From Candidatus Latescibacterota bacterium (GTDB taxonomy: Bacteria > Latescibacterota > UBA2968 > UBA8231), in assembly GCA_965248265.1 (NCBI GenBank), contig CBDFJF010000001.1, positions 2,720,001 to 2,784,000 of the forward strand: a stretch of 64,000 nt of DNA, given 5' to 3'. The stretch's first letter is position 1; each line of letters starts with the position of its first letter. Under the pieces are notes generated by a model that was given only the letters and a program-made list of their open reading frames with translations, did not search any database and was not told the origin of the DNA. This document shows positions 27,091-57,641 of this stretch, one piece after another. Position numbers and translations under genes: made by a program.

Positions 27091-27879
27091 TCATGTGCGA
27101 CGGCGCAACGCGTAGGCTCCGGTGCCGACGAGGAGGAACAGCATTGCTTTCTCTCCGCCAAATGGTATCGTCACCGCGGCGCCGTCGGTGGTCTTGGCGG
27201 GCCCGCCGCCGATGACGATGTGGTTGGCATTGTCGGCCAGCACCGGCAACCCGATATCGGAGTCAACCCCCCCGAGCCCTGTTTCTTCCATTCCGATGTT
27301 GTTGACGACGGCGCCGACCCGGAATGCATGGTCGGCGGTTGCCTGTCCGGAAATGCGCACTGAGATAATGAAGAAAATGGAACCTTGATCCGGAATGTCT
27401 CTGTCCACACCGGCTCCCGTGGCATCGACCTCCGTGATCGCGCCGATGTTTACCGGCGAGACCGAGGACATGAAGGTGTCAGCGCCGTCCAGAATCCCGT
27501 CCAGGCTGCGGTAGAGACGCATCTCAGTGAAGTCGCCGGAGACGATGCCGGTCGCCGTGGTCAAATCCGAAATGGTTAGCTGGATGCCTGTATTGAGTCC
27601 GACCCTGCCCAGGTGCCCATCAGGAGCGCCAAAAGGTCCTCCGTCCGCCAACTCGGTGGCATATATCTGAATCTCGTTGCCGAACTGGACCTGGGTTATA
27701 CCGGTCAGGCCGGTGACGCTCAGTGGAACATGAACCTGGCCGGAACCAGCTTGCGGCCAGAGCAGGCATGCCATGATCACCCACAGCCAGGCGAAGTACG
27801 GGGTAACACCGACTGCGCGTCGGGTTGTGCAATTGTCGTGATCGTCGACCATGTCGCCTGAAAAGGAAGGAATCGGCAC
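27091..27879 (-). CDS. Secreted beta-sandwich protein with C-terminal sorting signal (IPFGG motif, TM, RRR); putative exosortase target (start uncertain)
   Basis: N-terminal hydrophobic signal ending PQAGSG; C-terminus ...AVTIPFGGEKAMLFLLVGTGAYALRRRT*; lies next to an exosortase. Confidence 0.75.
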   Translation of the reverse strand: MPIPSFSGDMVDDHDNCTTRRAVGVTPYFAWLWVIMACLLWPQAGSGQVHVPLSVTGLTGITQVQFGNEIQIYATELADGGPFGAPDGHLGRVGLNTGIQLTISDLTTATGIVSGDFTEMRLYRSLDGILDGADTFMSSVSPVNIGAITEVDATGAGVDRDIPDQGSIFFIISVRISGQATADHAFRVGAVVNNIGMEETGLGGVDSDIGLPVLADNANHIVIGGGPAKTTDGAAVTIPFGGEKAMLFLLVGTGAYALRRRT

Positions 27880-27966
27880 GCTGTTGACCCGCCGTTCGGG
27901 CGCAACACTCCTATTCCTCTATATCGGCGTTCAGGCGATTTGGCTACAGCGGTTTTTCGTCTCTCT

Positions 27967-28671
27967 CTATCGCGATGGTTCAGACAGCCAATGGCTCCAT
28001 CGGGGAAACAGGCGGCAAACACTCGCCCAGCTCCACTGAGTGGGGAGAGCTGGTATGTCATCAGCCTGACCGGCTGTAACTGGCGCGGCAGCAGGTGTCC
28101 GCAAAACGGCCGTCGATCGATTTCGGATGGCGACGTACCAGACGGCCAAGCCAAGCCCGTAGCGAGCCCAGACGTTCCACAGCTCCAGGAGGCGAACCCA
28201 CAACGGGTCCAGAACACCGAATGCGGCGCTCAATTGGGCTGCCGCCGTCGCACTGGCCTCTGTGGGGGTCAATGTTGCGAGATAGCCGCCGATGGCCACC
28301 TGGCCACCCAATAGAAAGCTGAACACGTGAGTGGCCCAGAGGAACAGCCAGCTGCAGGCAATCCACCGCGCCCGCCACCCCCAACTCACGCCGGAAGTGG
28401 CCGTGAACAGGGCCGCGACTGCGATCAAGTTCAGGTAGACTGAGTCGTAGTCCAACGCCTGCAATCTCAAGCCACCGACGACGGGTTCATAGACGTAGAG
28501 CAGCAGGTCTCGCCTCTGCTCGAGGTGCAACGGCAGGTGTTGCTGCTCAAGCAGCCAGTTTACCGCCGGCACTACCGTGCGCAGGTAGACATTGGAAATC
28601 ACGTCCCAGGCGCACAGGGCGATGCTGGACGCGGCCACGAAGCGGACCAGGAACAGAAGGCTGCACCTCAA
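27967..28671 (-). CDS. Exosortase-associated membrane protein (XrtH-partner-like)
   Basis: Four TM segments; YLNLIAVAALFTAT, W..R...FLWATHV; TTG start overlaps the exosortase stop (TTGA). Confidence 0.65.
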   Translation of the reverse strand: MRCSLLFLVRFVAASSIALCAWDVISNVYLRTVVPAVNWLLEQQHLPLHLEQRRDLLLYVYEPVVGGLRLQALDYDSVYLNLIAVAALFTATSGVSWGWRARWIACSWLFLWATHVFSFLLGGQVAIGGYLATLTPTEASATAAAQLSAAFGVLDPLWVRLLELWNVWARYGLGLAVWYVAIRNRSTAVLRTPAAAPVTAGQADDIPALPTQWSWASVCRLFPRWSHWLSEPSR

Positions 28672-29249
28672 CTCAGCGTCCTTCCCGCGCCGGCCGCCCG
28701 CACCCAATACATCCATATGGTCAATACGAAACCGATGTTGACGAGGACCATCACGTAGAGATGGAACAGGTCAATGTACTGGGGAGCCAGATGCGCTACT
28801 ATACCCAACGTGACAAGGCGAAAAATGCTGTAACAGAGAAAAGCCGGAATGACCAGGCCGAGGCCCTTGATGCGGTGGATGATACGGGTCGGATAAGCCA
28901 GCACGGATGCCAGGCACAAGAACAGGGCGAAGATACCCGTACACTCGAACGATACCCGGTAAATGACGTTCTCCAACGCCAATTGACAGACCCCGGTCGA
29001 TGTGTCGAGCCCGCTCAGCTGCGCCTGTAACCCAAGGAATCGCAGTACCAACACGGCTCCGTACGTGACCGGGTACATGAACAGGTCGACCCAGACGCGA
29101 CGCCAGCTTTCGAACAGTACCCCCGTGGCCCCGAGCCAGACGGCGAACATGACGCAGAAACGGACGCCTGCTCCGCTGAGCTGGTTGCGCACCGAGGATA
29201 TCCCGTCCGCCAGAGCAGGACGTTGGCTGGCGATCCGGCTCAACGACAT
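28668..29249 (-). CDS. Exosortase/archaeosortase-family intramembrane cysteine protease, XrtH-like
   Basis: Cys-Arg-His triad context: VSFECTG, LASVLAYP, YSIFRLV, DLFHLYV; short multi-TM architecture. Confidence 0.85.
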   Translation of the reverse strand: MSLSRIASQRPALADGISSVRNQLSGAGVRFCVMFAVWLGATGVLFESWRRVWVDLFMYPVTYGAVLVLRFLGLQAQLSGLDTSTGVCQLALENVIYRVSFECTGIFALFLCLASVLAYPTRIIHRIKGLGLVIPAFLCYSIFRLVTLGIVAHLAPQYIDLFHLYVMVLVNIGFVLTIWMYWVRAAGAGRTLS

Positions 29250-29575
29250 GGAACCTCAGATCGACAGCAGCCAGCGAACGGCGATTTGAAACGCTGTGCC
29301 CGCGAGAATGACCCCGAGGCTGGCTAGACTGAGCAGGACCCCGGCGCCGGATAGGCGTAGTGCGTTTGACATGAAGTGGAACATCCGTGTCCCTCCGTAC
29401 CCGCAGTAAGAATGGGAAAATCGAAGGTGTCACCAAGCCTGTTGAGCCAACGACACCTTTCCCCTCACTTACGGATATCGGCGGCGATCTCCTGATCTTT
29501 AATACTGTTTTATAGGAGTGGTGTCGCCGGCGCGAAAACACCGACGACTTATCTGTCGAGGAGCTGACTCGTCCT

Positions 29576-32500
29576 CTACTTGATCATCAACAAGCGCCGC
29601 GATTGCACCGATCGACCGGCACGCAGCACGTAGATGTAGGTGCCCGAGGCGACGTTGTTGCCGTCGTCGTCGCGACCGTCCCAGACGTTGGCGTGAAACC
29701 CCGCTTCCAGCTCCCTGGCGGCCAGAGACCGCACGTGCTGGCCCAGCGTGTTGACGAGGACGAGATCGACCAGGGCTGCCTCAGGAAGGTCAAAGCGGAT
29801 AGTCGTTTCTCCATTGAATGGATTCGGGAAGTTGGAGTGCAGGTTGAACACACTCGGGACCGGTGCTGGGGACTGTTGCGACTGCAGATTCCCACCGCCG
29901 GCGACCTTGATGGTGGCATCGTTGAGATGGCCGTGAACGCGTAGAGCGGAAATCAGACTTGCTGCGGAGATCGTGGAACTCGCCGGCAAGGCGATGCGCA
30001 GCAGCTCTCCGGGGCCTTCGACCGGCCGTTCCAGTGCAAAGGCGATGCGCAGACGATCACCGTCGTGGCGGGAGTCGAGTAAGGCGTTGGCGACGTCAGG
30101 TCCCAGACTCACTCCAGTCTCATCCACACCCTCGACCCGAAGGTCGCCTGAAAGGATGTTGTCGCGTTGCTCGAGCCAGATTGAGATGTAGCCGTCTCCG
30201 GGTCGCAATGCCAGTTCGCGACCCTCTACGGCAACCTTGGGCACGGATTGATCGGTTTCCGGTTGGGGATGGTTGTCCGACTCGTCCTCCTGGATCGGAA
30301 AGCGACCGATGAGGCCGACTCGTTGACGAATCACCAGAGAGGCGTCGAAAGCCGTTATCGGTCCGAACGGCGCCAGCAGGTCAACGTTGGCAGCCATCGA
30401 ATCGTGGTCAGCCAGGGTAATGTTACCTACGGAGTGCGCCAGAATGAGTGCTGCGTCAAAAGCCTTGGTCGTGCCGTTGCCGCTGGCGTCGCCGAGCGGA
30501 TCGATGACGAAATTGGTAGCGGTGAGGTTGAGGCTGACCCCGGCCGAGTTCAGCAAGTCCTCGAATGAGGTAAATAGGTTGTCCCCGTCCTGCGTATTGA
30601 ATTCGCCGTCATTGTCCATCCCCGCCACGGTGCCGAACACGGTGGTCACCGTGCCGAAGAAGATACTGTCGTCGGCCGTCTGCTCGGTCAGATTGACGGT
30701 TTCCAGCTCGTTGGTCACAGAATTGACAACCTCCACGGTGACAACCTCGATCGCCGCCGGATTGACGTTGAGATCGGGATCGATGGCGCGTACCCGCACC
30801 GTGTCGCCGGGCGTCGACACCACCGTCGTCGCCAGGCTGCCGTCATTACCCACCAAGAGAACGGAGCCGTTCGCGAAGAGGACCCATTCCGGGCGCCCCC
30901 CGTTGAAATGTACGTGCGCGCCTTCGAGTATCGAGCTGGCCGGTGTGCGTACGTCGAGTACGGTGAAATCGATGTTGAGAAGGACGCCCTTCACCGTCGA
31001 CGCCGCGCCATTCGTCGATGCGGAAATCTTCAACGTATCGATCGTGGACGCGTTACCCGGCGAAACCGCGCCGTTGACGGTCCATGCATTAATGAGCGTT
31101 CCCGCGTCCAGAATCGAGTTCCACGACAACAGGTCGGAGTCGAACGCGATATGAAGATCGACCTCGGCCATTTTGAGCCCGTTCGTGGTGTCGACGGTGA
31201 CCGGGATGACCAGATTCTCATTGTAGGTGGCGTTGATGACGGGGAGGCTGAGCTCTACGTAGGGCGCCTCTCCGTAAATGACGTAGACTTCGCCGGCATC
31301 CAGGCCCGCGCCTGTGTCCGCTGTTGGCGCGCCAGGCATCAGGTCCTCAATGAAATCACCGTTGAGATCGCCTCCAGCGACGGCGTAACCGAGAAAATCG
31401 CCGGCGTCGTCCCCGAGAATAGTTACGTCGGCTTGCGTCGACGCCAGGCTGATCTGGCTGGCCAGCTGGGGATCCCCGGCAATCAAATAGCTCTTTCCTG
31501 CCCCGGTTCCTCCTGGGGTATCAGCCGGGTAGGCGCCGAGAAGCAGGTCATCAAAGCCATCACCGTTACTGTTCAGCGCGGCCATCGACCATCCGAGGTT
31601 GTGCGAAGCAGCCTCTCCCTGAATCCGCACGTCGGCGGCACCGGGCAGATTCTCTGTTGTCGACAGCGTTCCGCCGTATAGCACGTAGACCTCGCCGGCG
31701 TTTGACAGGCCGCCCGGATCGGCGCCCGTGGTGCCGATGATGACGTCGTCGAAACCGTCGCCGTTGACATCTCCGGCGGCGACCGCTTCACCTGCCTTGT
31801 CAAGGATGGCGGCGCCCTGGATATGCACACCGACACCTGGCGCCGGTTTGGTGATGAGATCGAATTGTTGATAGCTGCTCGGCGTAGCGGCGGGATCGCC
31901 GTAGAGGACATACGCCTCGCCACTGAGCGAGCCGTTCGGATCGGCCCAGTATGCCGCCACGATGACGTCGTCGGCAGCGTCGCCGTCGATGTCACCGGCG
32001 GCTACGGCGTTGCCGAGATTGTCATTCAACACGGCCCCTATGATCTCGATATTCTTGTCGGCCTGTACACTCATGGACAGGGTGGCTGGCGTGATGATCG
32101 TTGGGTCGCCGTAGATGACATAGACCTTGCCGGCATCGAAGCGCGACGCCGGCGCGTCCGCCTTGCGGGCACCGGCGATAATGTCGGCGAAGCCGTCGCC
32201 GTTGATATCACCGGTCGCGACAGCTCCTCCCAGAAAATCGCTGGCTGCCGAACCGACGAGGGTCAATTCTGTCGGTTGGCTCAGCAGATCCAGGGTGTTA
32301 GGCAAAGTAGCGCTGCCGTAAATGACATACACCTTGCCGGCATCGAGCACCGCGCCGTCGTCGGATGAGTGTGCTCCGACGATGATATCTTCGAAGCCGT
32401 CGCCGTTGACATCGCCTGCGGCAACTGAGCGGCCCGACTGATCAGAACTCGCAGCACCGAGTATGACCATGTCAGCGACCCCTCCGGCCAGGTCCATCGG

Positions 32501-32815
32501 AGTAGGCAGCGGGTTGGAATCGCCGTAGACGATATAGGTAATGCCTGCGCCCGCGCGGCCCGGGGGGGAGGCTCCGTAGACACCCATGATGAGATCGTCA
32601 ATCCCATCGCCGTTAACGTCGCCGCCGGCAACGGAGAATCCGAGAAAGCCACTGCCGTCCTCGCCCAGTACACGCACGTCTTCCTCGCCCGCGTCGAGAT
32701 CGATGGTCGTCTGCGCGAAGGCAGATCCACACACCGACAGACAGATGTAGCCCACGCGGCGCAGGGACCGTAGCACCCGCTGGCGTGTAGTGGTTATGTC
32801 AACTCGGTTGCGCAT
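29576..32815 (-). CDS. Secreted FG-GAP (integrin-alpha-like) propeller / cohesin / Ig / dockerin / FlgD-Ig(T9SS-like) CTD protein
   Basis: Seven GD(V/I/L)NGDG.xD-type repeats; VIPVTVD...IAFDSDLL cohesin; GDASGNG...FDA...ITAFDA dockerin; NFPNPFN...WDGRDDDG...RRLLMIK. Confidence 0.85.
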   Translation of the reverse strand: MRNRVDITTTRQRVLRSLRRVGYICLSVCGSAFAQTTIDLDAGEEDVRVLGEDGSGFLGFSVAGGDVNGDGIDDLIMGVYGASPPGRAGAGITYIVYGDSNPLPTPMDLAGGVADMVILGAASSDQSGRSVAAGDVNGDGFEDIIVGAHSSDDGAVLDAGKVYVIYGSATLPNTLDLLSQPTELTLVGSAASDFLGGAVATGDINGDGFADIIAGARKADAPASRFDAGKVYVIYGDPTIITPATLSMSVQADKNIEIIGAVLNDNLGNAVAAGDIDGDAADDVIVAAYWADPNGSLSGEAYVLYGDPAATPSSYQQFDLITKPAPGVGVHIQGAAILDKAGEAVAAGDVNGDGFDDVIIGTTGADPGGLSNAGEVYVLYGGTLSTTENLPGAADVRIQGEAASHNLGWSMAALNSNGDGFDDLLLGAYPADTPGGTGAGKSYLIAGDPQLASQISLASTQADVTILGDDAGDFLGYAVAGGDLNGDFIEDLMPGAPTADTGAGLDAGEVYVIYGEAPYVELSLPVINATYNENLVIPVTVDTTNGLKMAEVDLHIAFDSDLLSWNSILDAGTLINAWTVNGAVSPGNASTIDTLKISASTNGAASTVKGVLLNIDFTVLDVRTPASSILEGAHVHFNGGRPEWVLFANGSVLLVGNDGSLATTVVSTPGDTVRVRAIDPDLNVNPAAIEVVTVEVVNSVTNELETVNLTEQTADDSIFFGTVTTVFGTVAGMDNDGEFNTQDGDNLFTSFEDLLNSAGVSLNLTATNFVIDPLGDASGNGTTKAFDAALILAHSVGNITLADHDSMAANVDLLAPFGPITAFDASLVIRQRVGLIGRFPIQEDESDNHPQPETDQSVPKVAVEGRELALRPGDGYISIWLEQRDNILSGDLRVEGVDETGVSLGPDVANALLDSRHDGDRLRIAFALERPVEGPGELLRIALPASSTISAASLISALRVHGHLNDATIKVAGGGNLQSQQSPAPVPSVFNLHSNFPNPFNGETTIRFDLPEAALVDLVLVNTLGQHVRSLAARELEAGFHANVWDGRDDDGNNVASGTYIYVLRAGRSVQSRRLLMIK

Positions 32816-32818
32816 CGC

Positions 32819-34906
32819 TCACTTCAATAGGGTCATCTTGCGCACGTCTGTACGCGTGGAACTGTGCAATCGATAGAAATAGGTTCCGCCGGCAACCCCG
32901 GTGCCGGTGTTATCGCGACCGTCCCAGACTGCCCGGTAGCTGCCCGTCGCCAGCGGACCACTGTGCAGGGTGCGAATCAGCTGCCCGAGTTCGTTGAATA
33001 TCTGCAGACGTACGAACTCGGGGCGGTCGATCTGATAGGGTATGATCGTTTCGGGATTGAACGGGTTTGGAATATTGGGTTGCAGTCTGAATTGAACGGG
33101 AGTAACGGGTGCCGTCAGAGCCGTCTGTACGCTCCCGATTATGTCACCACCGTTGAATCGGACGGTACGCAACTGTGGCACTCGCCCATCTTCAGGAAAC
33201 AAGCGCAACAGTTCGCCGTCACCGTGCATGGGGACGGCCCCGGCCATGGCGATCCGACGGTCAAGGGGATCGCGTCCGACGGCCAGCAAGAATCCCTCCA
33301 CCCCCGCACCGAGTTCCACACGCCCTTCGAAATCAGCCAACGAGAGTTGCGCGGAAAGGATGCCCTCGCGGTCATCGGCGAGCAGGGAGATGTAACCCTC
33401 TCCACGGACGAGGGATATCATGCGCAAGTCGGGGATCGTCTTAGGTACCGAATTCGCGGTTTCCGGCTGAGGATGGTTGTCCGCATCAGGTGTCTGCACC
33501 GGAAAACGAGATATCAGTCCCACCCGCCACTGCAAGACCAGGGTGGCATCCTCCGCATCGATCGGGCTGAGAGGAGCCTGGAGATCCAGGTTGGAGGCCA
33601 TTGCATCCAGGCCGGCCAGGGTGATGTTGCCGACCTCATGCTCCAGCATCAGGAAGGCATCGAGGGCGCTAACGCTCCCGTTGCCGCTGGCATCCCCGAG
33701 GGGATCGACGATCACCGTGGTGGCCTGGAACGAGGCCGGCGGACCTGCTGCCGTCATTGTGTCGTCGTAGCGGACAAACAGAAGGTCGGCCTTCTGGATG
33801 TGCATGATGGTGTCGCCGGCAGCACCGGCACTCTGGCCGAAAACCGTGTAGAAACGACCGAGAAAAATATCGGTGTCTGGACCGGTCTCCAGCAGCAACA
33901 CGGTCTCTTCCTCGACAGAGGTGTCGTGCGAGACGTTTACGGTCGTGCTCTGTGCCGTGAGTGGATCCGTGTTCAGGTCCTGATCCTCGACGCGGACATA
34001 AAGGGTATCACCCGGCTCCGCCACGATCGTCACGTCGACGATTCCGTCCGTGTTTCCTTCCACGGTGACGAGGTCGCAACGTGGCAGGGTGACTCCTGCA
34101 GCGTCGAGGACGTCGTCGTAGCAAATCGAGATTTGATCACCGACTTCGGCCTGAACCAGGAAATCACCAGGATTTGCTGCCGCTGAGAAGGTCACGGGAA
34201 TTGAAATCTCGAATAGACCCGTTGCCGCGCCCGTTTCCACAGCAGTCAAGCTCTCGACATCGGCTCCGTTGGTTACCGTCACCGGCACGGAGTCCGCTGC
34301 GCCTGTCCGGTCTTCGTCCGCATCGTCGATCGCAATAAGTACGGTCTGCTCGAGCTCCACCGGCTCCGGGGTAGCGTCGATGGTGCCGTCGACGCCGATA
34401 ACCGTTATCAGACCATCGGATGTACCACCAGTTGGTGGCGCCTCGTTCAGGGAGACTTCTTCCAGGGTCAGCGGCGAATTCGCAGGATCGCGAAGATCGG
34501 CGACGTCAAATTCCAGCTCGAACAGAATGCCGGAGACATCGATGATGTCATTGACGGTCGCTCCGGCAATTTTCAGTGTATCGACGACACCCCCGTCGAC
34601 GAGGTTGGACTCAAGGAATCCGACCCATGGCTCCGTCAGATGACCAGTGAAGGTGATGTTGGTATAGGTCAGGACGCTGGTGTCAAAAGACACGAAGACC
34701 TCGACGGACACGATCTGTTCCGTCGTAACGCCAATCAAAGACACCGGTATTGTTGCGGAAGTCCCGTGTGGGACACCAACGGTCGGCGCGCTCACGGTGA
34801 CGACAGCAGCAGCCGGGAGGCTCGTTGCCACGACCGTGGCGAGCACGAATTGCGCCAGTAATCTCGGCGCTGTGCGCAGGGGGTTTCTAAGGAAGGTAAG
34901 TTTCAC
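32819..34906 (-). CDS. Secreted cohesin / 2x Ig-like / dockerin / FlgD-Ig CTD protein
   Basis: TIPVSL...VSFDTSVL...GILFELEF cohesin; two ETG..TG.F/GD...Y.D domains; GDASGNGSVSALDA dockerin; NIPNPFNPET...RKMTLLK. Confidence 0.85.
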   Translation of the reverse strand: MKLTFLRNPLRTAPRLLAQFVLATVVATSLPAAAVVTVSAPTVGVPHGTSATIPVSLIGVTTEQIVSVEVFVSFDTSVLTYTNITFTGHLTEPWVGFLESNLVDGGVVDTLKIAGATVNDIIDVSGILFELEFDVADLRDPANSPLTLEEVSLNEAPPTGGTSDGLITVIGVDGTIDATPEPVELEQTVLIAIDDADEDRTGAADSVPVTVTNGADVESLTAVETGAATGLFEISIPVTFSAAANPGDFLVQAEVGDQISICYDDVLDAAGVTLPRCDLVTVEGNTDGIVDVTIVAEPGDTLYVRVEDQDLNTDPLTAQSTTVNVSHDTSVEEETVLLLETGPDTDIFLGRFYTVFGQSAGAAGDTIMHIQKADLLFVRYDDTMTAAGPPASFQATTVIVDPLGDASGNGSVSALDAFLMLEHEVGNITLAGLDAMASNLDLQAPLSPIDAEDATLVLQWRVGLISRFPVQTPDADNHPQPETANSVPKTIPDLRMISLVRGEGYISLLADDREGILSAQLSLADFEGRVELGAGVEGFLLAVGRDPLDRRIAMAGAVPMHGDGELLRLFPEDGRVPQLRTVRFNGGDIIGSVQTALTAPVTPVQFRLQPNIPNPFNPETIIPYQIDRPEFVRLQIFNELGQLIRTLHSGPLATGSYRAVWDGRDNTGTGVAGGTYFYRLHSSTRTDVRKMTLLK

Positions 34907-34918
34907 GCATGGCGCCCC

Positions 34919-37900: not shown

Positions 37901-40324
37901 CGACAGGATGCGCGGACTCGTGACATCGGGCTCTGGTATGGTCGTGACCGTGAAGTTACCACTCATCGTCGGCCCGTTCCCATCCGGATCCTTGGAGGAA
38001 ACGCGAAAGTGATAGGTCGTACCTGCCAACAGGCGCGTCAGCGTGACGACGTGCTCGCGCGTGGGATCGGGACTCTCAGCGAAAAGGCCGTATGCTTCGG
38101 TCAGTCCGTATTCCACTACGGAATCGCTGGCCTCATTGGTCTTCCAGACGACGGTTACGTAATCGTGCCCTCGTGTGCGCACACCGGGATCCGAGCTGAT
38201 GCTGGGTGGCTCGGTATCCTCGGCTGCTGCCGTTTCCAACTCAAAGTCTTCCGAGGACGTCGGCCCGTTGCCAGCGAGATCGACCATGCGAATGTTGCAG
38301 TGGTAGCGTGTCCCGGCGGTGAAACCCGTCAACGTCACGACATGTTTGGTTGCGGCCGTCGCTATGTCGATGAAGCGGCCATACTCGGATGTGGGGCCGA
38401 ATTCGATCTGGCCGTTGGCGTCCTCATCCATTTCCCAACCGATCGTAATCTTGTTGTGGAAACGTTTGATGATGTATGGGCGCCGCACGAACTTGCACGG
38501 TCTGGTGTCGTTGTCCTTCTTGGTGACGAATGTGTGATTCTCGCTGGACACGGTATTGCCGCTGGCATCCGTCGATTGAACGCGGTAGTGATAGAGCGTC
38601 GATGACTCCAATCCGATCAACAGCGATCGGTGTTTGCGCACGAGGTCATCGTTCTCGACAACTTGGCCGTAGTCTTCGTTGGTACCGTACTCGACGCGAG
38701 AGTGGCTGCCTTCGTCAGTCCGCCAGCGTATGACAGCCTTGGTTTTTTTGGTCGTCGACTTGGGACCCTTGGTAATCCGCGGGGCCTCTCCGTCTTCCTG
38801 GGGGGTGTGGAACTTGCCCAGCTTAAACGCCGAGCTGTTACCGGAAGCGTCCGTGGACCTGACCCGATAGATGTACGACACACTGGATTGTAAGCCCTCG
38901 ATCCATATCTCGTGCTTGAGAACCAGGTCAGTTACCAGTATCTCTTCGGCCCCGTCGAACAGATCGTCAACATCGTCCTCCCCGTCATCGTCGTATTCTG
39001 CGTACTGCAGAAAGCTGTCGCTGAACTCATCCGTGATCCAGGTGACGTGAGCTTCCTCTGGTGCTACTTCGGCCGTCGGACCAAGCGTGATGTCGGGCGG
39101 GTCGTCGTCCGGAGCTTCCTGCGTGATGAAATAACCACCCTTCCAGCGTGAAGCGTTGCCCGCACTGTCGACGGAGCGCACCCGGAAGAGGTAGAAGGTG
39201 TCCGGTGTCAGTGAACTTAGCTCGACTTTGTGATCTTTGGTCAGTGTCAAATCGACTACGCGCCCGCAGTCGAAGGTGAACACCGGGACGGCGGCATCGA
39301 GGTCGTTAAAGTGGGGCAGGTCACCCTGCAACAGCAGATCGGTAGCGTTCTCGAGTGTTGTAGCTTGCTCTTCAGCCAGCAGCTCAACCGCCTCAGTGAA
39401 ATTGTGCGGCCGGATCTTGGCGGCACAATAGACGACCCGACTATCACTCAGTTCAGTAGTCGTCCACAGAATGTGTGCGCTGTTGTCGGTCACACTGGCG
39501 ACACTCGGGCCTGAATCGATTTCCGGCGGCTGGGTGTCGGGATTGACCTGGATGTAATCCTCTTTGACCTCCGTGGCGCTGCCGGGCCCTCCCGTCACGG
39601 TTAGACTAACCGTGTAGTCACCGGCTGTTTCGTAGACGTGGGTGGGGTGCTGTTCCTCACTCGTGCCGCCGTCGCCGAAGGTCAACGCGTAGGAGCTGAT
39701 CTCTCCAGAGGAGAGGTCCTCGAAACGGACCTCAAGAGGCACCATGCCCTCCAGCGGATGGCCACTGAAATCGGGCGTGATGACATCCTCGACGATGGTG
39801 ATGGTGCCGTCGACGGTGATGGGTACGGGCGTGCCATTGTTGAAGGCGGCGGCCTGAAAACTGATGTTGGTGACGGTGTTGAGCGGTGCGGATGGGGCGA
39901 TGATGCCCTCAATTACGAAGAAAGTACCGTCCTCGGCTATTACACCGGTGGCAGTAGCACCAGCAATAAGAAGCGGGCCTGCCTCGGGGGGGTCGCTTTG
40001 TGCGACAAACGGGTTGTAGGCGACGCTCCAATTGGCACTCAAGGTGCCGGTGCGATCGATGGCAATGTCGCCGGGCGGCAAGATAAGAGCATCGTAACTT
40101 ATCTCGATGTTGCAGGAGAGGAGTTCGTCGGGGGCAACGTCCGTCAGCGTAACCGGAATACGGACCCGGTCGCCGGGACCGGCTTCGACATCCGCCAACG
40201 CCACCTGTAGTGCCTCAGCCGGATGCACCAAGGCAGAAGCGATCGACAGCACCATCAAGGTGCAGACGACCGCTGTCAGCCGGTGCTGCCTATGGGTCGA
40301 GGGGAGTGCCATGCCCATAGCCAC
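34919..40324 (-). CDS. Giant secreted cohesin / PKD / ~12x FN3 / EF-hand dockerin-like / cohesin-like / FlgD-Ig CTD protein
   Basis: GDRVRIPV...YDALIL; PKD FGDG...P.HVY...G.YTVSLTV; repeated WxTxE...H.V.L..L...T.Y.FRV.S.D..GN; GDFLRDGIVNFSDFF/DLDGDGTIALGDFF; NYPNPFNPQT...RKLLLLR. Confidence 0.88.
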   Translation of the reverse strand: MAMGMALPSTHRQHRLTAVVCTLMVLSIASALVHPAEALQVALADVEAGPGDRVRIPVTLTDVAPDELLSCNIEISYDALILPPGDIAIDRTGTLSANWSVAYNPFVAQSDPPEAGPLLIAGATATGVIAEDGTFFVIEGIIAPSAPLNTVTNISFQAAAFNNGTPVPITVDGTITIVEDVITPDFSGHPLEGMVPLEVRFEDLSSGEISSYALTFGDGGTSEEQHPTHVYETAGDYTVSLTVTGGPGSATEVKEDYIQVNPDTQPPEIDSGPSVASVTDNSAHILWTTTELSDSRVVYCAAKIRPHNFTEAVELLAEEQATTLENATDLLLQGDLPHFNDLDAAVPVFTFDCGRVVDLTLTKDHKVELSSLTPDTFYLFRVRSVDSAGNASRWKGGYFITQEAPDDDPPDITLGPTAEVAPEEAHVTWITDEFSDSFLQYAEYDDDGEDDVDDLFDGAEEILVTDLVLKHEIWIEGLQSSVSYIYRVRSTDASGNSSAFKLGKFHTPQEDGEAPRITKGPKSTTKKTKAVIRWRTDEGSHSRVEYGTNEDYGQVVENDDLVRKHRSLLIGLESSTLYHYRVQSTDASGNTVSSENHTFVTKKDNDTRPCKFVRRPYIIKRFHNKITIGWEMDEDANGQIEFGPTSEYGRFIDIATAATKHVVTLTGFTAGTRYHCNIRMVDLAGNGPTSSEDFELETAAAEDTEPPSISSDPGVRTRGHDYVTVVWKTNEASDSVVEYGLTEAYGLFAESPDPTREHVVTLTRLLAGTTYHFRVSSKDPDGNGPTMSGNFTVTTIPEPDVTSPRILSGPDIVDRSSRGVFIEWLTDEPTDASVDFGPDINYGSEVSSENFRRLHRVMLLGEPGIEYHYRVTSSDEAGNEPVTSRDLTFVLDEPEDDEQEPPSIRNLHVRKVTASSALITWWTTRPTDGFIRYGQSDQYSDEVGSADIRRRHTALITGLSSGTTYHFQVQSTDIDGLTAFSGNDTFTTDDEEDELAPEIVFGPEIIASHATATFSWKTNEPCFGAIAVGTEDELGTPSEVLFDEEEADDDHNVTITGLQAGVRYFFALVMKDLSGNQLTFGNRNQGAGKVVRPLLDGGEISFTTDVDEDLQAPTFLSGPAKLSTTDTEAVITWDTDEVSDTRLWLVAADGSRTLADFVPEHSFEHQVLLTDLSPATTYTVVAASADPVGNGPAESQPLSFTTPMEPDDDAPVLTSGPQIIALEDRSATISWSTDEGASSVVDYGDFALDQSLVVTETLSQQTVKLTNLNPASSYQFRVSVTDAFGNGPQQSSVQSFATAISPDELAPQIISGPSVEHVTDNTAVIVWATNEGTDGFVQFGTDALDAVTGRAEVELEHNVELTNLNAATEYRFTVASADAAGNGPAMSSELIFATAGAPDETPPVSPTVISVRQSGQSGRNTVTVDWASDPFDDIAGYNVYRAIAGDFELIAGPVEGLEYADNGLPEGGEFRYYITALDGASPPNESVASDILTLLVHDRPGDFLRDGIVNFSDFFLMADVWGLNSADPGFDSIFDLDGDGTIALGDFFLFADVFGTHYETGRAIVTAPGVGRTDGELPSLRLVHEKMVESDHYQVSVASEGPGMQGHGVTFEYDSDSFEFLRATSGVPEGEAQILVVLADDSGTVAVGSYLIQPSADGEMNTVFNLVFRTWPGAPTGQLRIAEAVAVDAQGVISAFAVGPESQLHLQPQHFELLPNYPNPFNPQTSIRFQLPQPAQVWLRVFDVLGQEVTALAAGEEYSAGLHQLEWNGLDRSGRAVASGVYLYALEADSFRQVRKLLLLR

Positions 40325-40356
40325 GATTCCTTTCGCGCTTTCCGTTTGGATTTTCG

Positions 40357-43300
40357 TTATCGAATAAGGGCCATTTTTCGCGTTTTGATCACTTCACCAG
40401 CCTGGAGGCTGTAGAGATAAACTCCGCCAGCCACTTCATATCCTGAATTGTTACGTCCATCCCAGGTCATGGTGTAGGATCCCGTTTGTTGATAGTCGAA
40501 GACCAGGGTGCGAACTGTCTGTCCAAGCAGATCGTACACGATCAACTCAACGAAGGATTCTTCCGGCAGGTTGTATCGGATCTGCGTTTCAGGGTTGAAC
40601 GGGTTGGGCCAATTTTGCCAAAGGGTGTAGCTACTGGGCAGTACGAAAGCGGCCGGGTTATCAACCACGTCTATTGTCGTTGTGCCTCCGTTGAAGGATA
40701 CCTCCTCGAACTCGAAAGGCTGGCTTCCCGGCCTGGCATTCGGCAGAGGTTCGATCGGAATCGTCAATATGGCGGCTGAACCTTCTGAACTGGACTCAGC
40801 TCCAGCAAAGGCGATCATCAATCTACCATCGACTACATTGCTGGCCACGAGAAAGTCCGATGTTTCATCGGTTGTCGAGACCTTTCCGACTTCGTACTGC
40901 GAAGAATCGAATCCCAGCGTCATACTCCCCGCATACAGGCCATCTACCTCCGAAACCACGATCGGTACGGATATACCCAGGGCGGAGGTTTCGGGTGGAC
41001 CCAGCGCCAGACTACGGGCATCGGGGACCACCTTGTAGGGATGCGGGTTGGGAACGTTGTTAGGCGACTCCTGGACCGGAAACAACAGAGAGGGGTCATT
41101 GATGTCGGGCGGCAACTCGACAACGAACCGTAGAATCTGAGATGCATCGTCTGGAATGGGGTCTGGATAGCCGACCGCGCTCGGATTCACGTCCCCGACG
41201 AGCAACTGGTAGCCGTCGAGGGGCGGGACCAGTAGCCCCACGACGTCAGACAAAATCAACGAGGCGTCCAGTGAACTGACCGTCCCGCTCTTACTCGTGT
41301 CACCCCAAAGAACGCCGAAGCTATTGGCGATCAGCTCAATGGGCTCGCCTTGCGCCGCGATATCGTCGTAGCGCACCTCGATTGGATCCGTGTCGCCGAT
41401 CTGTAGAATTCCATCGTTCGCCGGCAATCCCGGAAGTGTCGGCATCCCTGGATTCGGTACGCCGGGGTTTATTTCGAAGATTCCGCTGTCCACATCTGTT
41501 TCTGTCAGCGTAACGGTTTCGATGTCCAAGTTAGTCATATTCTCGACTTCAACGTCGACCTCGTCGGGGCCGCCGGTCGTGTTGTGATCGGCATCAACGA
41601 GCCGAATGCGAAAACCTTCGCCTGCCTGCACGCCCTGACTGACGGTCAGTACGCCCGTGACCCCGTTCGCGAAAATGATCTCACCACCTGGGGCGGGATT
41701 TACGATGGTGTTCGCTTCACCCTCCGTATTGAGTGCATCGTCATATTCGGCCGTAACTGAATCACCGGCCTTGACACCAAACACGGTGTCGCCCGGGTTG
41801 CCCACAGTGCCCGGATCGAAGGTGGTCACGATCGAGCCCGCGAAGTTACCCAGATTCAGCGGGTCTTCGGTCAGTATCACATCCTCGACGTCATTGGGTG
41901 TCACTGAGGTGTTGACGATGCGGACCGTCACCGAGCCCTGCGTCTCCAGATCGTGATCCTCCAGAGCCACATCGATCGTCACACCCGGATATGCGGGAAC
42001 AGACTGCGGCGTGATGCTCAATACACCCGTGTCACCGCCGCCGATGGTGATCTCACCACCGGGTGCCGGATTCACCAAGGTGTTCGCTTCACCCTCCGTG
42101 TTGAGTGCATCGTCATATTCGGCCGTGACTGAATCACCGGCCTTGACGCCAAACACGGTGTCGCCCGGGTTGCCCACAGTGCCCGGATCGAAGGTGGTCA
42201 CGATCGAGCCCGCGAAGTTACCCAGATTCAGCGGGTCTTCGGTCAGTATCACATCCTCGACGTCATTAGGTGTCACTGAGGTGTTGACGATGCGGACCGT
42301 CACCGAGCCCTGCGTCTCCAGATCGTGATCCTCCAAAGCCACATCGATCGTCACACCCGGATTTGCGGGAACAGACTGCGGCGTGATGCTCAATACACCC
42401 GTGTCACCGCCGCCGATGGTGATCTCACCACCGGGTGCCGGATTCACCAAGGTGTTCGCTTCACCCTCCGTGTTGAGTGCATCGTCATATTCGGCCGTAA
42501 CTGAATCACCGGCCTTGACGCCAAACACGGTGTCGCCCGGGTTGCCCACAGTGCCCGGATCGAAGGTGGTCACGATCGAGCCCGCGAAGTTACCCAGATT
42601 CAGCGGGTCTTCGGTCAGTATCACATCCTCGACGTCATTGGGTGTCACTGAGGTGTTGACGATGCGGACCGTCACCGAGCCCTGCGTCTCCAGATCATGA
42701 TCCTCCAGAGTCACATCGATCGTCACACCTGGATTTGCGGGAACAGACTGCGGTGTGATGCTCAATACACCCGTGTCACCGCCGCCGATGGTGATCTCAC
42801 CACCGGGTGCCGGATTCACCAAGGTGTTCGCTTCACCCTCCGTGTTGAGTGCATCGTCATACTCGGCCGTGACTGAGTCACCGGCCTTGACGCCAAACAC
42901 GGTGTCGCCCGGGTTGCCCACAGTGCCCGGATCGAAGGTGGTCACGATCGAGCCCGCGAAGTTACCCAGATTCAGCGGGTCTTCGGTCAGTATCACATCC
43001 TCGACGTCATTGGGTGTCACTGAGGTGTTGACGATGCGGACCGTCACCGAGCCCTGCGTCTCCAGATCGTGATCCTCCAAAGCCACATCGATCGTCACAC
43101 CCGGATTTGCGGGAACAGACTGCGGCGTAATGCTCAATACACCGGTGCTGCCACCCAGCGAAATCGACCCGTCTGTCGCATTGACGGAGACCAGAGCCTC
43201 ATTCAATTCGGCGACGTCAAAGGTGATCGCCGTCGACACCGGAACGGAGGTGTCTTCGGTCGTGAACTGGATTATCAGCAGGTCAGCCGGAGTCGAAATA

Positions 43301-43692
43301 TCCCCGAGTGCAGTCGAGCTGGCTGCAGAGATACGCAGTTCGTCGACGGTAGTAAGTGGAACGTCGACGACGTTGGCCGCCGTGAACCAAGTCGCGATTT
43401 CCGTTCCCGCCGTGATGATCGGCAGTTGAGGCTGTGCCACCGCGCTGTCGTAGGTGATCACGAGATCAACACTGGTGACATTGTCCAAAGCCAGAACGCC
43501 GTCGATGAGGATCGGCAGATCGGTCGAGTTATCGCCAGGGAGGACGGTCTGGTTCTTCGCGAATACCACGTCGGGCACAGACAGATCAACGGCCTGCGCG
43601 AAGGTCCCGGTCAGCAAGATGCCAGCGATGATCAGCGGCAGTGAAATTCGAAGCCGAGGGACCTGGCTCTGAGTAGATGCCCTCGTATTCAT
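40357..43692 (-). CDS. Secreted cohesin / 4x124-aa tandem Ig-like repeats / Ig / dockerin / cohesin / FlgD-Ig CTD protein
   Basis: Signal peptide; LPILID...ITYDSAV cohesin; four near-identical repeats; GDTSKSGTVSSLDA dockerin; VPIVV...GFDSSQY cohesin; NWPNPFNPET...RKMALIR. Confidence 0.88.
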   Translation of the reverse strand: MNTRASTQSQVPRLRISLPLIIAGILLTGTFAQAVDLSVPDVVFAKNQTVLPGDNSTDLPILIDGVLALDNVTSVDLVITYDSAVAQPQLPIITAGTEIATWFTAANVVDVPLTTVDELRISAASSTALGDISTPADLLIIQFTTEDTSVPVSTAITFDVAELNEALVSVNATDGSISLGGSTGVLSITPQSVPANPGVTIDVALEDHDLETQGSVTVRIVNTSVTPNDVEDVILTEDPLNLGNFAGSIVTTFDPGTVGNPGDTVFGVKAGDSVTAEYDDALNTEGEANTLVNPAPGGEITIGGGDTGVLSITPQSVPANPGVTIDVTLEDHDLETQGSVTVRIVNTSVTPNDVEDVILTEDPLNLGNFAGSIVTTFDPGTVGNPGDTVFGVKAGDSVTAEYDDALNTEGEANTLVNPAPGGEITIGGGDTGVLSITPQSVPANPGVTIDVALEDHDLETQGSVTVRIVNTSVTPNDVEDVILTEDPLNLGNFAGSIVTTFDPGTVGNPGDTVFGVKAGDSVTAEYDDALNTEGEANTLVNPAPGGEITIGGGDTGVLSITPQSVPAYPGVTIDVALEDHDLETQGSVTVRIVNTSVTPNDVEDVILTEDPLNLGNFAGSIVTTFDPGTVGNPGDTVFGVKAGDSVTAEYDDALNTEGEANTIVNPAPGGEIIFANGVTGVLTVSQGVQAGEGFRIRLVDADHNTTGGPDEVDVEVENMTNLDIETVTLTETDVDSGIFEINPGVPNPGMPTLPGLPANDGILQIGDTDPIEVRYDDIAAQGEPIELIANSFGVLWGDTSKSGTVSSLDASLILSDVVGLLVPPLDGYQLLVGDVNPSAVGYPDPIPDDASQILRFVVELPPDINDPSLLFPVQESPNNVPNPHPYKVVPDARSLALGPPETSALGISVPIVVSEVDGLYAGSMTLGFDSSQYEVGKVSTTDETSDFLVASNVVDGRLMIAFAGAESSSEGSAAILTIPIEPLPNARPGSQPFEFEEVSFNGGTTTIDVVDNPAAFVLPSSYTLWQNWPNPFNPETQIRYNLPEESFVELIVYDLLGQTVRTLVFDYQQTGSYTMTWDGRNNSGYEVAGGVYLYSLQAGEVIKTRKMALIR
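41659..43146 (-). repeat. Four intragenic 372-bp tandem repeats (124 aa each)
   Basis: Identical antisense ORFs at 42011/42383/42755 with period 372; only scattered substitutions. Confidence 0.97.
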
Positions 43693-43869
43693 AATACGTC
43701 TCCTAGGGGAAAGGGACGAAAACCATCATTTTTGTCCAAAGGTCGTTTTCGACTCCTACGCTAATGAATTAACGATACTTGTTGTGCCGCAGCAAGTTGT
43801 GAATCAGTGGCCGGTACCCGCCAAGAGCATGTTCCACCGAAGTCGCCACGTTAATCTATATTATATAGA

Positions 43870-43885
43870 CGCAATAATCGTACCC
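43870..43885 (-). promoter_or_regulatory. Putative sigma54 promoter for the cohesin-dockerin operon
   Basis: Minus strand GGGTACGATTATTGCG (GG-N10-GC, ACG and TTGC conserved) in an AT-rich intergenic region just downstream of a sigma54 activator gene. Confidence 0.65.
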
Positions 43886-44012
43886 ATAACTGGTTCGTTT
43901 TGTCCGTTTTCGGCAAATGGACCTATCTCAGTGTACCACAATTACTTAAGAACATTGACAGATTGCACTCGGTGGCTTCAGTCCGTCAAATGCGGCTGAC
44001 GAGAGGGCTATT

Positions 44013-44031
44013 TACCCCATATTTTGGGGCA
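44013..44031. promoter_or_regulatory. Candidate upstream activator sequence (inverted repeat)
   Basis: TACCCCA-TATTT-TGGGGCA about 130-145 bp upstream of the -24 element. Confidence 0.35.
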
Positions 44032-44140
44032 TATACCCACCGGCTCACACTCCTTGTTGGTTGATCTGTGTCTGTCGCTGGATCGAACCTGGTTTGTGGT
44101 TCGAGGCGAAAAAGACGAGAAGTGCTCGGGATCCCTCGGC

Positions 44141-45166
44141 TCAGGCAGCCGGGACGCCCTCGGAGGCCAACCCGTGTTTGCTGATCCGATAGCGAAGAGT
44201 GTCGCGGCTGACCTGTAGAAGCTCAGCCGCTCGCGTGACGTTTCTGCCCGATTTCTCCAGAGCCGCGCGAATCAGTTCCCGCTCCACGGCTTCCAGAGCC
44301 AGGCCCTGAGGGGGGAATTCGACTGCAATGGCCCCTTGATCGTCCAGGCGAATTGCACTGCTCGCGGATGGTGAGGTCGTGACCGCTCCTGCGTAGTTGC
44401 GCCTGTCTATGATCAAGTCGTCTGCCCTGATCACTGTGCGGTCGGTCATCAGCACCGCTCGCTCGATGACGTGGCGCAGTTCGCGAACATTGCCTGGCCA
44501 GGAGTAGGCACTCAAGAGAAGCTGGGCGCTTTCACCCAATCGGCGAGCTCCAGTGCCGTGTATCCTGGTGTATTCAGCCAGGACGTGGTCGGCTATCAGG
44601 CGAACATCTTCTCCTCGCGTCCGTAGTGGAGGAGCCTCGATCGGCACCACGTTCAAGCGATGATAGAGATCATCCCGGAAACGCCCGTCTTGCACCGCCG
44701 ATTCCAGATCTTCGTTTGTCGCTGCCAGAAACCGCACGTCCACCTGAATCTCAACAGTGCCGCCGACCCGACGAAATCGCTGGGTCTCGAGAACGTTGAG
44801 TATTTTTGCCTGCAATTCGAGTGGCATGAGGCCGATTTCATCCAGTAACACGGTGCCGCCACCGGCAATCTCCAACAGACCCTTCTTGGAGGTGCTGGCA
44901 TCGGTAAAGGCTCCGCGCTCATGCCCGAACAGCTCGGATTCCATCAGGTTGGCTGGGATGTTGGTGCAGTCGACGGTTACGAAGGCGTTGTCACTCCGGT
45001 TGCTGAGCTGGTGTATCGCACGGGCGATAAGCTCTTTGCCGGTGCCGCTTTCACCCCGAATGAGTAGGGTTGCTCTGGTGTGTGCCACGCGCTCGACCAG
45101 CCGAGACAGATCGTGCATGACCGCGCTCTGGCCGACAACACCCTCTGTTTCAAGTGCCGATGACAT
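44141..45166 (-). CDS. Sigma54-dependent enhancer-binding protein (AAA+ and Fis HTH) without N-terminal sensor domain
   Basis: GESGTGKE, ESELFGHERGAFTDA, LLDEIG, FRDDLYHRLNV, WPGNVREL, NVTRAAELL.VSRDTLRYRI. Confidence 0.95.
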   Translation of the reverse strand: MSSALETEGVVGQSAVMHDLSRLVERVAHTRATLLIRGESGTGKELIARAIHQLSNRSDNAFVTVDCTNIPANLMESELFGHERGAFTDASTSKKGLLEIAGGGTVLLDEIGLMPLELQAKILNVLETQRFRRVGGTVEIQVDVRFLAATNEDLESAVQDGRFRDDLYHRLNVVPIEAPPLRTRGEDVRLIADHVLAEYTRIHGTGARRLGESAQLLLSAYSWPGNVRELRHVIERAVLMTDRTVIRADDLIIDRRNYAGAVTTSPSASSAIRLDDQGAIAVEFPPQGLALEAVERELIRAALEKSGRNVTRAAELLQVSRDTLRYRISKHGLASEGVPAA

Positions 45167-45405
45167 GCTGTACGCTGAGCCCTCCTTGTGTCCGCATTGG
45201 GTGAATTCCCCCATCCGCACCGTGGAAAAAGCGCATGAGAGAAGTGCCAGTAATATAACTACTTATGACAGACCTCCCAGCGTTCCGTATGCACACCGAG
45301 GGCGCTATTGGGGGATGGGGTGAGCTGGGCGTGGTGAATGGACGAGATTTTGCGGATGGCTCAGTGCAGGCGCAGGGTGGCGTGCGTAGATTCACAATTG
45401 GCCGG

Positions 45406-57470: not shown

Positions 57471-57625
57471 TGTGCCTGCCCTTTCCTGCTGATTCACTCC
57501 TTGAGAAAACTGCCGCTGCCGAGCAACCAGGGGTAATCCGTTCCCTTCGTGACCGTGCATACGTATCACGTGAATACCGTTTATACAATTGTTTTTAATA
57601 CACTTAAAGTAAAATCTCACCGAAG

Positions 57626-57641
57626 TGGCACGGCACTTGCC
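57626..57641 (+). promoter_or_regulatory. Putative sigma54 promoter (near-perfect consensus)
   Basis: TGGCACGGCACTTGCC preceded by an AT-rich tract (about 57575-57615). Confidence 0.75.

Follow-up and report, generated by a model that had tools for sequence, protein, structure and literature searches.

Cohesin and dockerin modules on enzyme-free proteins with type IX secretion tails: a predicted surface system of a Latescibacterota bacterium beside a conserved exosortase

Cohesin-dockerin pairs are the glue of Gram-positive cellulosomes, and the role of these modules elsewhere is a long-noted question. Non-cellulosomal cohesin and dockerin proteins were reportedly treated by Peer et al. in 2009. 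In Clostridia, adaptor and anchoring scaffoldins (ScaB/ScaC of Acetivibrio cellulolyticus, 4uyp/4uyq) place cohesins and a dockerin on one non-catalytic polypeptide, as do the four proteins examined here. For bacteria of the Fibrobacteres-Chlorobi-Bacteroidetes (FCB) type, the available part of a report on Candidatus Stygibacter (Cloacimonadota; PMC8542988) describes a scaffoldin-like protein of 3755 amino acids (aa), which bears a type IX secretion system (T9SS) C-terminal domain (CTD) and combines tandem cohesins with CBM2/CBM3; dockerins are found there on enzymes (GH18, GH57, peptidases), and the whole is read as a surface complex. According to the portions of two further papers available to us, T9SS mutants of Tannerella forsythia are without their surface layer (S-layer; PMC4175972), and deletion of xrtF or its partner in Flavobacterium johnsoniae leads to less surface colonization and biofilm, like T9SS mutants, while the substrates of XrtF remain to be found (PMC10936215). 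Here we analyzed a window of 64,000 nucleotides from a Candidatus Latescibacterota bacterium (assembly GCA_965248265.1, contig CBDFJF010000001.1, positions 2,720,001 to 2,784,000), in which a locus of eight genes is predicted to encode a non-cellulosomal cohesin-dockerin surface system, T9SS-anchored and enzyme-free, with a conserved exosortase neighbor.

The window, i.e., the whole stretch of DNA analyzed, belongs to a genome of 7.32 Mb in two contigs. An earlier sequence-only reading had described eight co-oriented genes; all of them were found on the minus strand at the places it gave, and its gaps of 32, 12, 3, and 326 bp are exact. The genes are as follows:

44141-45166, minus strand: act, activator gene; open reading frame (ORF) open to a GTG at 45220
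40357-43692, minus strand: A, 1111 aa
34919-40324, minus strand: B, 1801 aa
32819-34906, minus strand: C, 695 aa
29576-32815, minus strand: D, 1079 aa
28668-29249, minus strand: xrt, exosortase-family gene, 193 aa
27967-28716, minus strand: mem, membrane protein gene, 249 aa; 49-bp overlap with xrt
27091-27879, minus strand: sub, presumed exosortase substrate gene, 262 aa

BLASTP revealed that A-D are paralogs with common modules, and their N-termini are signal-peptide-like. The computed isoelectric points of 4.05-4.28 agree with the proposal of acidic secreted proteins, and no catalytic family was matched in A-D with Pfam, in line with the enzyme-free scaffold that had been proposed. With regard to a cellulosome, the Pfam scans gave no glycoside hydrolase, polysaccharide lyase, carbohydrate esterase or carbohydrate-binding module family in A-D. 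Homologs of C, at 44-46% identity, come from records labelled as Latescibacterota or Gemmatimonadota metagenome-assembled genomes (MAGs).

Based on sequence profiles, A-D share a common plan: an optional head, a first cohesin (Coh1), spacers of immunoglobulin-like (Ig) or fibronectin type III (FN3) domains, a dockerin (Doc), a second cohesin (Coh2) and the T9SS CTD, i.e., two predicted sockets and one predicted plug per subunit. Only one cohesin-like module per protein had been recognized before; the cohesin identity stands, and the count is corrected to two in each of A-D. The modules lie at the following positions:

Coh1, minus strand (Pfam/profile): A 43138-43593; B 39779-40213; C 34382-34807; D 30836-31261
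Dockerin, minus strand (profile): A 41038-41316; B 35618-35845; C 33461-33718; D 30257-30514
Coh2, minus strand (profile): A 40612-41010; B 35177-35587; C 33074-33448; D 29831-30244

The Pfam gathering cut-offs are 24.1 bits for Cohesin (PF00963), 22.9 bits for Dockerin_1 (PF00404) and 27 bits for FlgD_ig. Cohesin exceeded its cut-off in B (36.6 bits), in C (29.8 bits, and 35.0 when scanned as a piece), in D when scanned as a piece (29.2 bits; 23.7 in the whole-protein scan) and at Coh2 of A (25.5 bits, residues ~907-1000), with Coh1 of A below it at 17.6-22.4 bits. Coh1 of C was folded by AlphaFold2 (AF2) with a predicted local distance difference test score (pLDDT) of 85-94 and matches cohesin 1g1k_A (Foldseek, TMt 0.78, root-mean-square deviation 2.6); the cohesin structures matched by the C model lie at TMt 0.72-0.79. 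The beta-sandwich between dockerin and CTD is, as judged by profile comparison, a second cohesin: the Coh2 and Coh1 profiles (25 rows each) align with an hhalign probability of 96.9% (E 1.7e-10), and the Coh2 profile searched against PDB sequences matched 2xdh_A, titled 'COHESIN' (E 1.1e-7). We take 2xdh to be a cohesin of Archaeoglobus fulgidus, from a protein that bears both cohesin and dockerin.

For the dockerin, a profile was built from 12 aligned dockerin-like modules of the window and three relatives. Its best match among PDB sequences was 4uyq_B (E 3.8e-9, positions 7-78 of 86), followed by 4uyp_B (E 6.7e-9) and further dockerin chains; a Pfam-valid dockerin elsewhere in the genome was also recovered by the same kind of profile. 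The first calcium loop is kept as GD-x-S/D-x-N/S-G...D, with G8, D9, and D20 invariant. The dockerin identity of these modules appears to hold, and this call rests on sequence profiles because the AF2 folds of the module were of low confidence. Of the confirmation by Pfam and HHpred that the sequence-only reading had proposed, the cohesin and FlgD_ig parts were obtained; the dockerin failed at the Pfam cut-off and was recovered by profile against solved dockerins.

Protein A has Ig-like repeats between Coh1 and dockerin, including four near-identical copies of 124 aa, and its orthologs range from 1049 to 1453 aa in stop-to-stop frames. At the DNA level the repeats were located with Tandem Repeats Finder:

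41676-43147, within gene A: tandem array, 4.0 copies of a 372-bp unit, 97% matches

In B, PKD is followed by a long run of FN3-type domains between Coh1 and dockerin (Pfam: PKD_4 59.9, Pur_ac_phosph_N 199.8 in 8 stretches, and fn3 145.2 bits), while C has two S-layer-like Ig domains and D a single Ig domain in this place. N-terminal to Coh1, D carries a head, an FG-GAP propeller of seven repeats (167.8 bits, Pfam). The AF2 model of full-length C (mean pLDDT 73.6) shows the cohesin at residues 36-180, two Ig domains at 185-400, the dockerin at 401-490 with low pLDDT, the beta-sandwich at 493-595 and the CTD. The top Foldseek match of this model was to S-layer chains of Nitrosopumilus maritimus (E 5.6e-13), and the C-family profile matched 8c8k_A over residues 187-383 (E 3.2e-7, PDB sequences).

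All four proteins end in FlgD_ig (35.5-47.1 bits), and TIGR04183, with a cut-off of 23 bits, scored 28.0 in A, 27.8 in B and 25.6 in D, with C below at 19.1. The T9SS machinery of the genome was judged from PorU, with three matches of 626-655 bits (cut-off 420), and SprA, with 297 + 277 bits; at least 121 CTD-bearing ORFs were detected with our own CTD profile. By these matches, the tails of A-D are ordinary T9SS sorting signals, and A-D are predicted T9SS cargo. The earlier description of a T9SS-like tail is borne out by the CTD matches and was understated, since the genome has what appears to be a full T9SS and at least 121 CTD cargo proteins. Given the CTDs and the T9SS of the genome, A-D therefore have their own route of surface anchoring.

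The family beyond the operon was examined with a Doc+Coh2 profile of 20 rows, run against 1.84 billion representatives. Matches amounted to 10,423 proteins at E<=0.001 and 2,470 at E<=1e-10, with 229 clusters at E<=1e-30; the design thus extends beyond this operon and belongs to a large protein family. Among the 150 best representatives, our own profiles found Coh-Doc-Coh2-CTD in 112 and Doc-Coh2-CTD in 25, and the Doc-Coh2-CTD cassette lies at the C-terminus in 140. The linker between Doc and Coh2 is short and conserved (FPVQ...NHPQPE), and in 19 of the first 20 rows 84-100 residues follow the Doc-Coh2 cassette. We surveyed the heads by a Pfam scan of every third of these representatives (48 of 150), which yielded FlgD_ig in 43, Cohesin in 14, FG-GAP in 11, UnbV_ASPIC in 7, PD40 in 6, LTD in 4, beta-helix/NosD in 2 and LRR in 1; the heads thus scanned appear to be mostly propellers. 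No glycoside hydrolase family was present among the 25 listed of the 52 families found in these 48 proteins. The cassette also occurs in records titled Poribacteria, Cloacimonadota, Balneolales and Melioribacter. A separate scan with the C-family alignment gave mostly CTD-only matches, with a cohesin or dockerin in 15 of the 96 CTD-bearing ORFs of its loci and xrt or mem in none of these loci (2-kb flanks).

Runs of two or three adjoining T9SS cargo genes were observed in a Melioribacter MAG record (L119) and a Balneolales MAG record (L054). One gene of each run encodes Doc-Coh2-CTD, and its neighbors encode one or two cohesins and a CTD; comparable clusters of cohesin and dockerin genes are thus present in further FCB-type phyla.

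In the literature searched there was no account of the Coh1...Doc-Coh2-CTD plan, of the four-gene operon or of its exosortase neighbor; Latescibacteria with cohesin and dockerin were not found there, nor was cohesin and dockerin together with FG-GAP. Cohesin, dockerin and Poribacteria co-occur in the accessible text of a survey of salt-lake microbial diversity, and a review of anaerobic methanotrophic archaea (ANME) treats exosortase and cohesin separately in the sections available. The Doc-Coh2-CTD design is widespread and apparently undescribed.

The second part of the locus begins with xrt, a minimal exosortase-family membrane protein (TIGR04178, 32.0 bits, cut-off 23). It falls in no named exosortase subfamily, with XrtX at 48 against a cut-off of 170, XrtH at 36.4 against 86, XrtF at 29.9 against 90, XrtM at 23.8 against 125 and XrtY at 17.9 against 160. 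A Cys, an Arg and a His are invariant in 21 of 21 xrt homologs, and we take these to be the catalytic residues. The polytopic membrane protein mem, with no Pfam or NCBIfam match, comes after xrt in the orthologous loci and likewise in the second copy of the genome and in several paralogous loci. The secreted protein sub ends in VTIPFGGE-KAMLFLLVGTGAYAL-RRRT, i.e., a motif, a membrane helix and a basic cluster, which fits the layout of PEP-CTERM-class sorting signals; sub is the presumed exosortase substrate. None of the NCBIfam tail models fits it (best GVDTG_CTERM, 14.3 bits against 29), and Pfam and NCBIfam yielded only a far sub-threshold ScyE_fam match. Six further tails adjoining xrt copies follow the pattern [IV]P[FLA]-transmembrane (TM)-basic, and the tail-bearing proteins next to the xrt paralogs of relatives are varied, including BNR/sortilin-type, ASH-type Ig and sub-like proteins. 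These tails predict a system with one substrate per sortase and a kind of tail that has not been catalogued.

A second xrt-mem-substrate set is present in the genome (G000:C1:340416-343359, L006), beside a response regulator and not beside cohesin-dockerin genes; its substrate of 399 aa (stop-to-stop frame) has the tail SIPFQSKW-TM-KLK.

Just 5' of xrt lies a further small frame:

29255-29384, minus strand: micro-ORF, 42-aa single-pass membrane peptide

Peptides of this kind (G-x-G-x-LLG ... WLL) were found in six of eight translated spacers, i.e., in our genome, G019, G131, G144, G129, and G020; the translated stretches of G013 and G024 yielded none. The micro-ORF is likely a fourth component of the exosortase module. 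The micro-ORF, the apparently full T9SS of the genome and the second cohesin per protein are additions to the sequence-only reading.

The multi-gene cluster was identified in nine genomes: our own, G013, G019, G020, G024, G129, G131, G132, and G144. The order A-B-C-D-xrt-mem is kept in seven of seven assessable genomes from five genera (own, G013, G019, G020, G129, G131, and G144), with xrt identities of 49-55%; separation of the exosortase trio from the scaffold genes in other genomes, which had been named as the telling check, was thus not seen. The contigs of G132 and G024 end inside D, and xrt-mem of G024 is on a separate contig of 4.7 kb. G004 gave no match to xrt, and its C/D-like pieces are spread over three small contigs; at 85% completeness and 980 contigs it is not assessable. 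Of 61 related genomes, 14 encode the xrt protein, and C-like proteins were detected in 31 of the 168 genomes of the phylum (E<=1e-30). At 52% identity or more, xrt occurred among 60 related genomes only in G013, G019, G020, and G024, which are the four with the cluster; in genera g6, g7, g14, and g15, some species have both cluster and close xrt and others neither. These linkage counts come from kin and are not independent. One independent case is a locus of G019 (L013), in which two giant CTD proteins come immediately before a paralogous xrt-mem-IPF-tail set.

Downstream of mem, G024 (L008) and the other relatives, as far as their contigs reach, have genes for a PKD-repeat protein and a TolB-like lipoprotein. 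The sub homolog of G024 is placed after these two genes, at which the contigs of the other relatives end; the window is without both genes. The lipoprotein of the relatives (L008:628-1881, L036:1-544, L038:18134-18724, L011:1-710) contains the repeats VEDPV, VVDPPDT, GTDPTD, and GDDGTP, which are short, perfect and tandem and coincide with the contig ends; the L008 copy has a TolB-like propeller.

To assess whether plug fits socket, Coh1 and the dockerin of C were modeled as a pair, which scored 0.46 compared with 0.02 for the best control ('weak support'), with a partner pLDDT of at least 63 and at least 98% of contacts agreeing between runs. Of 157 solved complexes, 116 pass the mark for this complex score, as do 2 of 215 mismatched pairs; passes at 0.60 or under comprise only 18 of the 157 solved complexes and both passing mismatches. 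Because cohesin-dockerin complexes have already been solved, the pass may only reflect likeness to them, and the modeling lends weak support to head-to-tail chaining through cohesin and dockerin.

Given how T9SS works, A-D would use Sec to cross the inner membrane and T9SS to cross the outer one, and PorU would cut the CTD and fix the new C-terminus, just after Coh2, to the outer-membrane surface. The dockerin of one subunit would then plug into a cohesin of another, as the modeled pair suggests. The four proteins would thereby be cross-linked into a highly acidic surface layer or adhesive mesh; its outer ends would bear binding heads, e.g., the integrin-like propeller of D. Micro-ORF, xrt, mem, and sub would constitute a separate sorting system, i.e., a minimal exosortase with its own one-to-one IPF-tail substrate; this module appears to come and go along with A-D and probably works for the same surface structure. 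Taken as a whole, the reading of A-D as T9SS-anchored proteins cross-linked by cohesin and dockerin, with the exosortase module as a separate system, is one that we hold with moderate confidence.

Several observations weigh against it. The dockerin matches Dockerin_1 only below the cut-off (B 14.9, D 12.2 bits), with none listed for A or C, and in dockerins of the C/D type the second calcium loop exceeds that of 4uyq_B by 3 residues. AF2 gave it three helices at low pLDDT, 53 for the module alone (12-row alignment) and ~32 within full-length C. The upstream flank, with AraC-type response regulators, is also syntenic, and part of the xrt linkage may be plain inheritance. Among the paralogous xrt loci, the other ~8 that could be assessed have no adjoining CTD gene, i.e., one of ~9 has a CTD. 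Furthermore, 140 of the 150 best members have Doc and Coh2 as neighbors in a constant order, which would also fit an intramolecular or structural pair.

This last point leads to the account that A-D are four independent T9SS adhesins without any network, in which Doc-Coh2 is a self-closing or stalk-stiffening unit like the X-module-dockerin dyad. The fixed C-terminal place of the cassette, the constant stretch of 84-100 residues behind it, the short conserved linker and heads that are binding modules all agree with it; however, the separate distal Coh1, kept in 112 of 150 representatives, would lack a partner, and AF2 did not pack the dockerin on Coh2 in full-length C (dockerin pLDDT ~32). The modeled pair of Coh1 and dockerin in trans also lends weak support to a network (0.46 vs 0.02), and four paralogs are kept in fixed order in all seven genomes. 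We regard independent adhesins as unlikely, if a serious possibility. The widest form of the cross-linking reading, that T9SS-anchored Coh1...Doc-Coh2-CTD subunits daisy-chain into an undescribed surface layer without lattice contacts, with the minimal exosortase system as a co-evolved part, across Latescibacterota-like bacteria, Poribacteria, Cloacimonadota, Ignavibacteriota and Balneolales, is offered tentatively and strikes us as doubtful.

It is improbable, in our view, that A-D act as cellulosome-like scaffoldins whose free cohesins recruit other dockerin-bearing T9SS cargo encoded elsewhere, enzymes included, as proposed for Cloacimonadota, where the available part of PMC8542988 describes GH18, GH57 and peptidases that bear dockerins, along with a scaffoldin that ends in a CTD. 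Candidate partners exist: the genome encodes other dockerin-bearing CTD proteins, one with a beta-helix/NosD/pectinesterase-like region (L030), and an arylsulfotransferase + CBM4_9 protein with a weak cohesin match (L034). Against this stand their small numbers in 7.3 Mb. Pfam matched 10 cohesins and 4 dockerins in the genome, none of the latter being a module of A-D, and the dockerin subtype in question occurs in only six proteins, four of which are A-D. In addition, most carriers have both cohesin and dockerin, A-D are without carbohydrate-binding modules, and no glycoside hydrolase was among the families listed for the sample of 48. Finally, it is very improbable that the IPFGG protein sub is the membrane tether of a cohesin-dockerin chain, as the sequence-only reading had supposed: the adjacency of xrt-mem to A-D is conserved, but the sub profile aligned to Coh1 and Coh2 with hhalign probabilities of 0.2% and 0.05%, found no PDB match at E<=10 and no Pfam match at E<=1, i.e., no cohesin or dockerin at sequence level (which also leaves sub unsupported as an exosortase-sorted cohesin), A-D already bear T9SS anchors, and two genes part mem from the sub homolog in G024, which alone among the relatives has a contig that extends this far.

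With regard to regulation, act is a sigma54 enhancer-binding protein with Sigma54_activat (PF00158, 226.9 bits), AAA_lid_14 and a Fis-type HTH_8 in Pfam, in which the scan found no N-terminal sensor or receiver domain; it reached the cut-off of no named NCBIfam equivalog. Its loop reads GAFTDA, for which we presume the consensus to be GAFTGA. In the same place, G019 encodes an ortholog with 61.5% identity, and rpoN was detected in our genome with 442.5 bits. Three elements were located in the spacers:

43871-43884, minus strand: sigma54-type promoter candidate GGTACGATTATTGC (GGTAC-N5-TTGC), ~180 nt 5' of the A ATG
44015-44029: palindrome CCCCA-N5-TGGGG, candidate activator site, ~135 bp 5' of the sigma54-type promoter
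29460-29515, minus strand: AT-rich (TAAAG) patch, then a GCCGATA element, in the D-xrt spacer

GGYAC-N5-TTGC has 5 matches in the window compared with 0.83 expected, and the counterpart in the act-A spacer of G019 is GGCACGAACCTTGC. The palindrome occurs just once in the 64-kb window (0.14 expected) and again just once in 20 kb of G019 (L011; 0.02 expected), where it lies in the same act-A spacer; its spacing to the promoter is ~134-138 bp in both genomes. Scans of the act-A spacer for sigma70 promoters and terminators gave nothing useful. None of the other seven cluster-bearing genomes has an adjoining act or a good -24/-12 site. The proposed sigma54 control is coherent here, with its enhancer-binding protein, -24/-12 promoter candidate and rpoN, and is confined to two of the nine cluster genomes; it is therefore not defining of the system. 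The operon would be driven by a sensor-less sigma54 activator in our genome and one other genus only.

The AT-rich patch noticed earlier near 29490-29515 exists, and the GCCGATA core next to it is invariant in seven of seven aligned D-xrt spacers. Together they may act as an internal promoter or as a leader of the exosortase genes; the spacer showed no sigma70-type promoter and no terminator in a scan that is blind to other promoter types. GCCGATA...WAGWG was also considered as a genome-wide regulon motif and rejected, with 14 matches against 7 for the reversed control.

Two side observations were made in the surroundings of act and of the promoter motif. The sole perfect TGGCAC-N5-TTGC of the window is at 57626-57640 (plus strand), immediately beyond the 5' end of a nucleotidyl-transferase ORF on the minus strand (56667-57620), and overlaps a reverse-strand match to TGG-N9-TGC. 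At 47721-48779 (minus strand) a 352-aa protein has a weak match to a GT2 glycosyltransferase (24.8 bits); its G019 ortholog (L026:2287-3420) directly precedes and overlaps act, and in the window genes for an EamA transporter and a metallo-beta-lactamase-fold protein separate the two.

The findings point to a large, coherent family in which plug and sockets are carried by one enzyme-free T9SS cargo protein, next to its predicted attachment point at the outer membrane. They provide a testable model for the coats, sheaths or adhesive meshes of uncultured FCB-type bacteria, and the compact modules, if self-assembling, may be of use for surface display in T9SS hosts. A minimal XrtF-like exosortase paired with visible substrates could, furthermore, help to find XrtF-type targets in Bacteroidota.

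When the locus is compared with the Clostridia scaffoldins, cellulosomal cohesins match Coh1 by sequence and fold, and the ScaB dockerin of A. cellulolyticus is the best solved match of our dockerin profile (E 3.8e-9). In contrast to these scaffoldins, the host here is double-membraned, and export and anchoring would rely on a T9SS CTD, not on an S-layer homology domain or sortase; A-D have no carbohydrate-binding module, dockerin-tagged glycoside hydrolases are lacking, each subunit has two cohesins and one dockerin, and the dockerin is below the Pfam cut-off with a longer second loop. Non-cellulosomal cohesin and dockerin proteins resemble A-D in having these modules outside a cellulose context, and the best solved match of Coh2, 2xdh_A (E 1.1e-7), falls among them. 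We know of no cohesin-dockerin contacts in the S-layers of T. forsythia or N. maritimus. The N. maritimus S-layer (8c8k-8c8r) has Ig arrays that match the spacers of A, C, and D, a likeness of Ig domains from which no lattice is claimed here. TfsA and TfsB of T. forsythia are likewise large Ig-rich surface-layer proteins, and according to the available part of PMC4175972 their layer needs T9SS. Like the cohesin protein of Ca. Stygibacter, as far as the accessible text of PMC8542988 describes it, A-D combine cohesins with a T9SS CTD in an FCB-type lineage; unlike in that case, each of these enzyme-free proteins carries plug and sockets together. The exosortase module resembles XrtF of F. johnsoniae, described in the accessible portion of PMC10936215 as a minimal exosortase with an adjoining membrane partner in a T9SS organism. 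It differs from it in that xrt reaches only 29.9 bits against the XrtF cut-off of 90, mem falls in no family, and each xrt copy here has an adjoining [IV]P[FLA]-TM-basic substrate.

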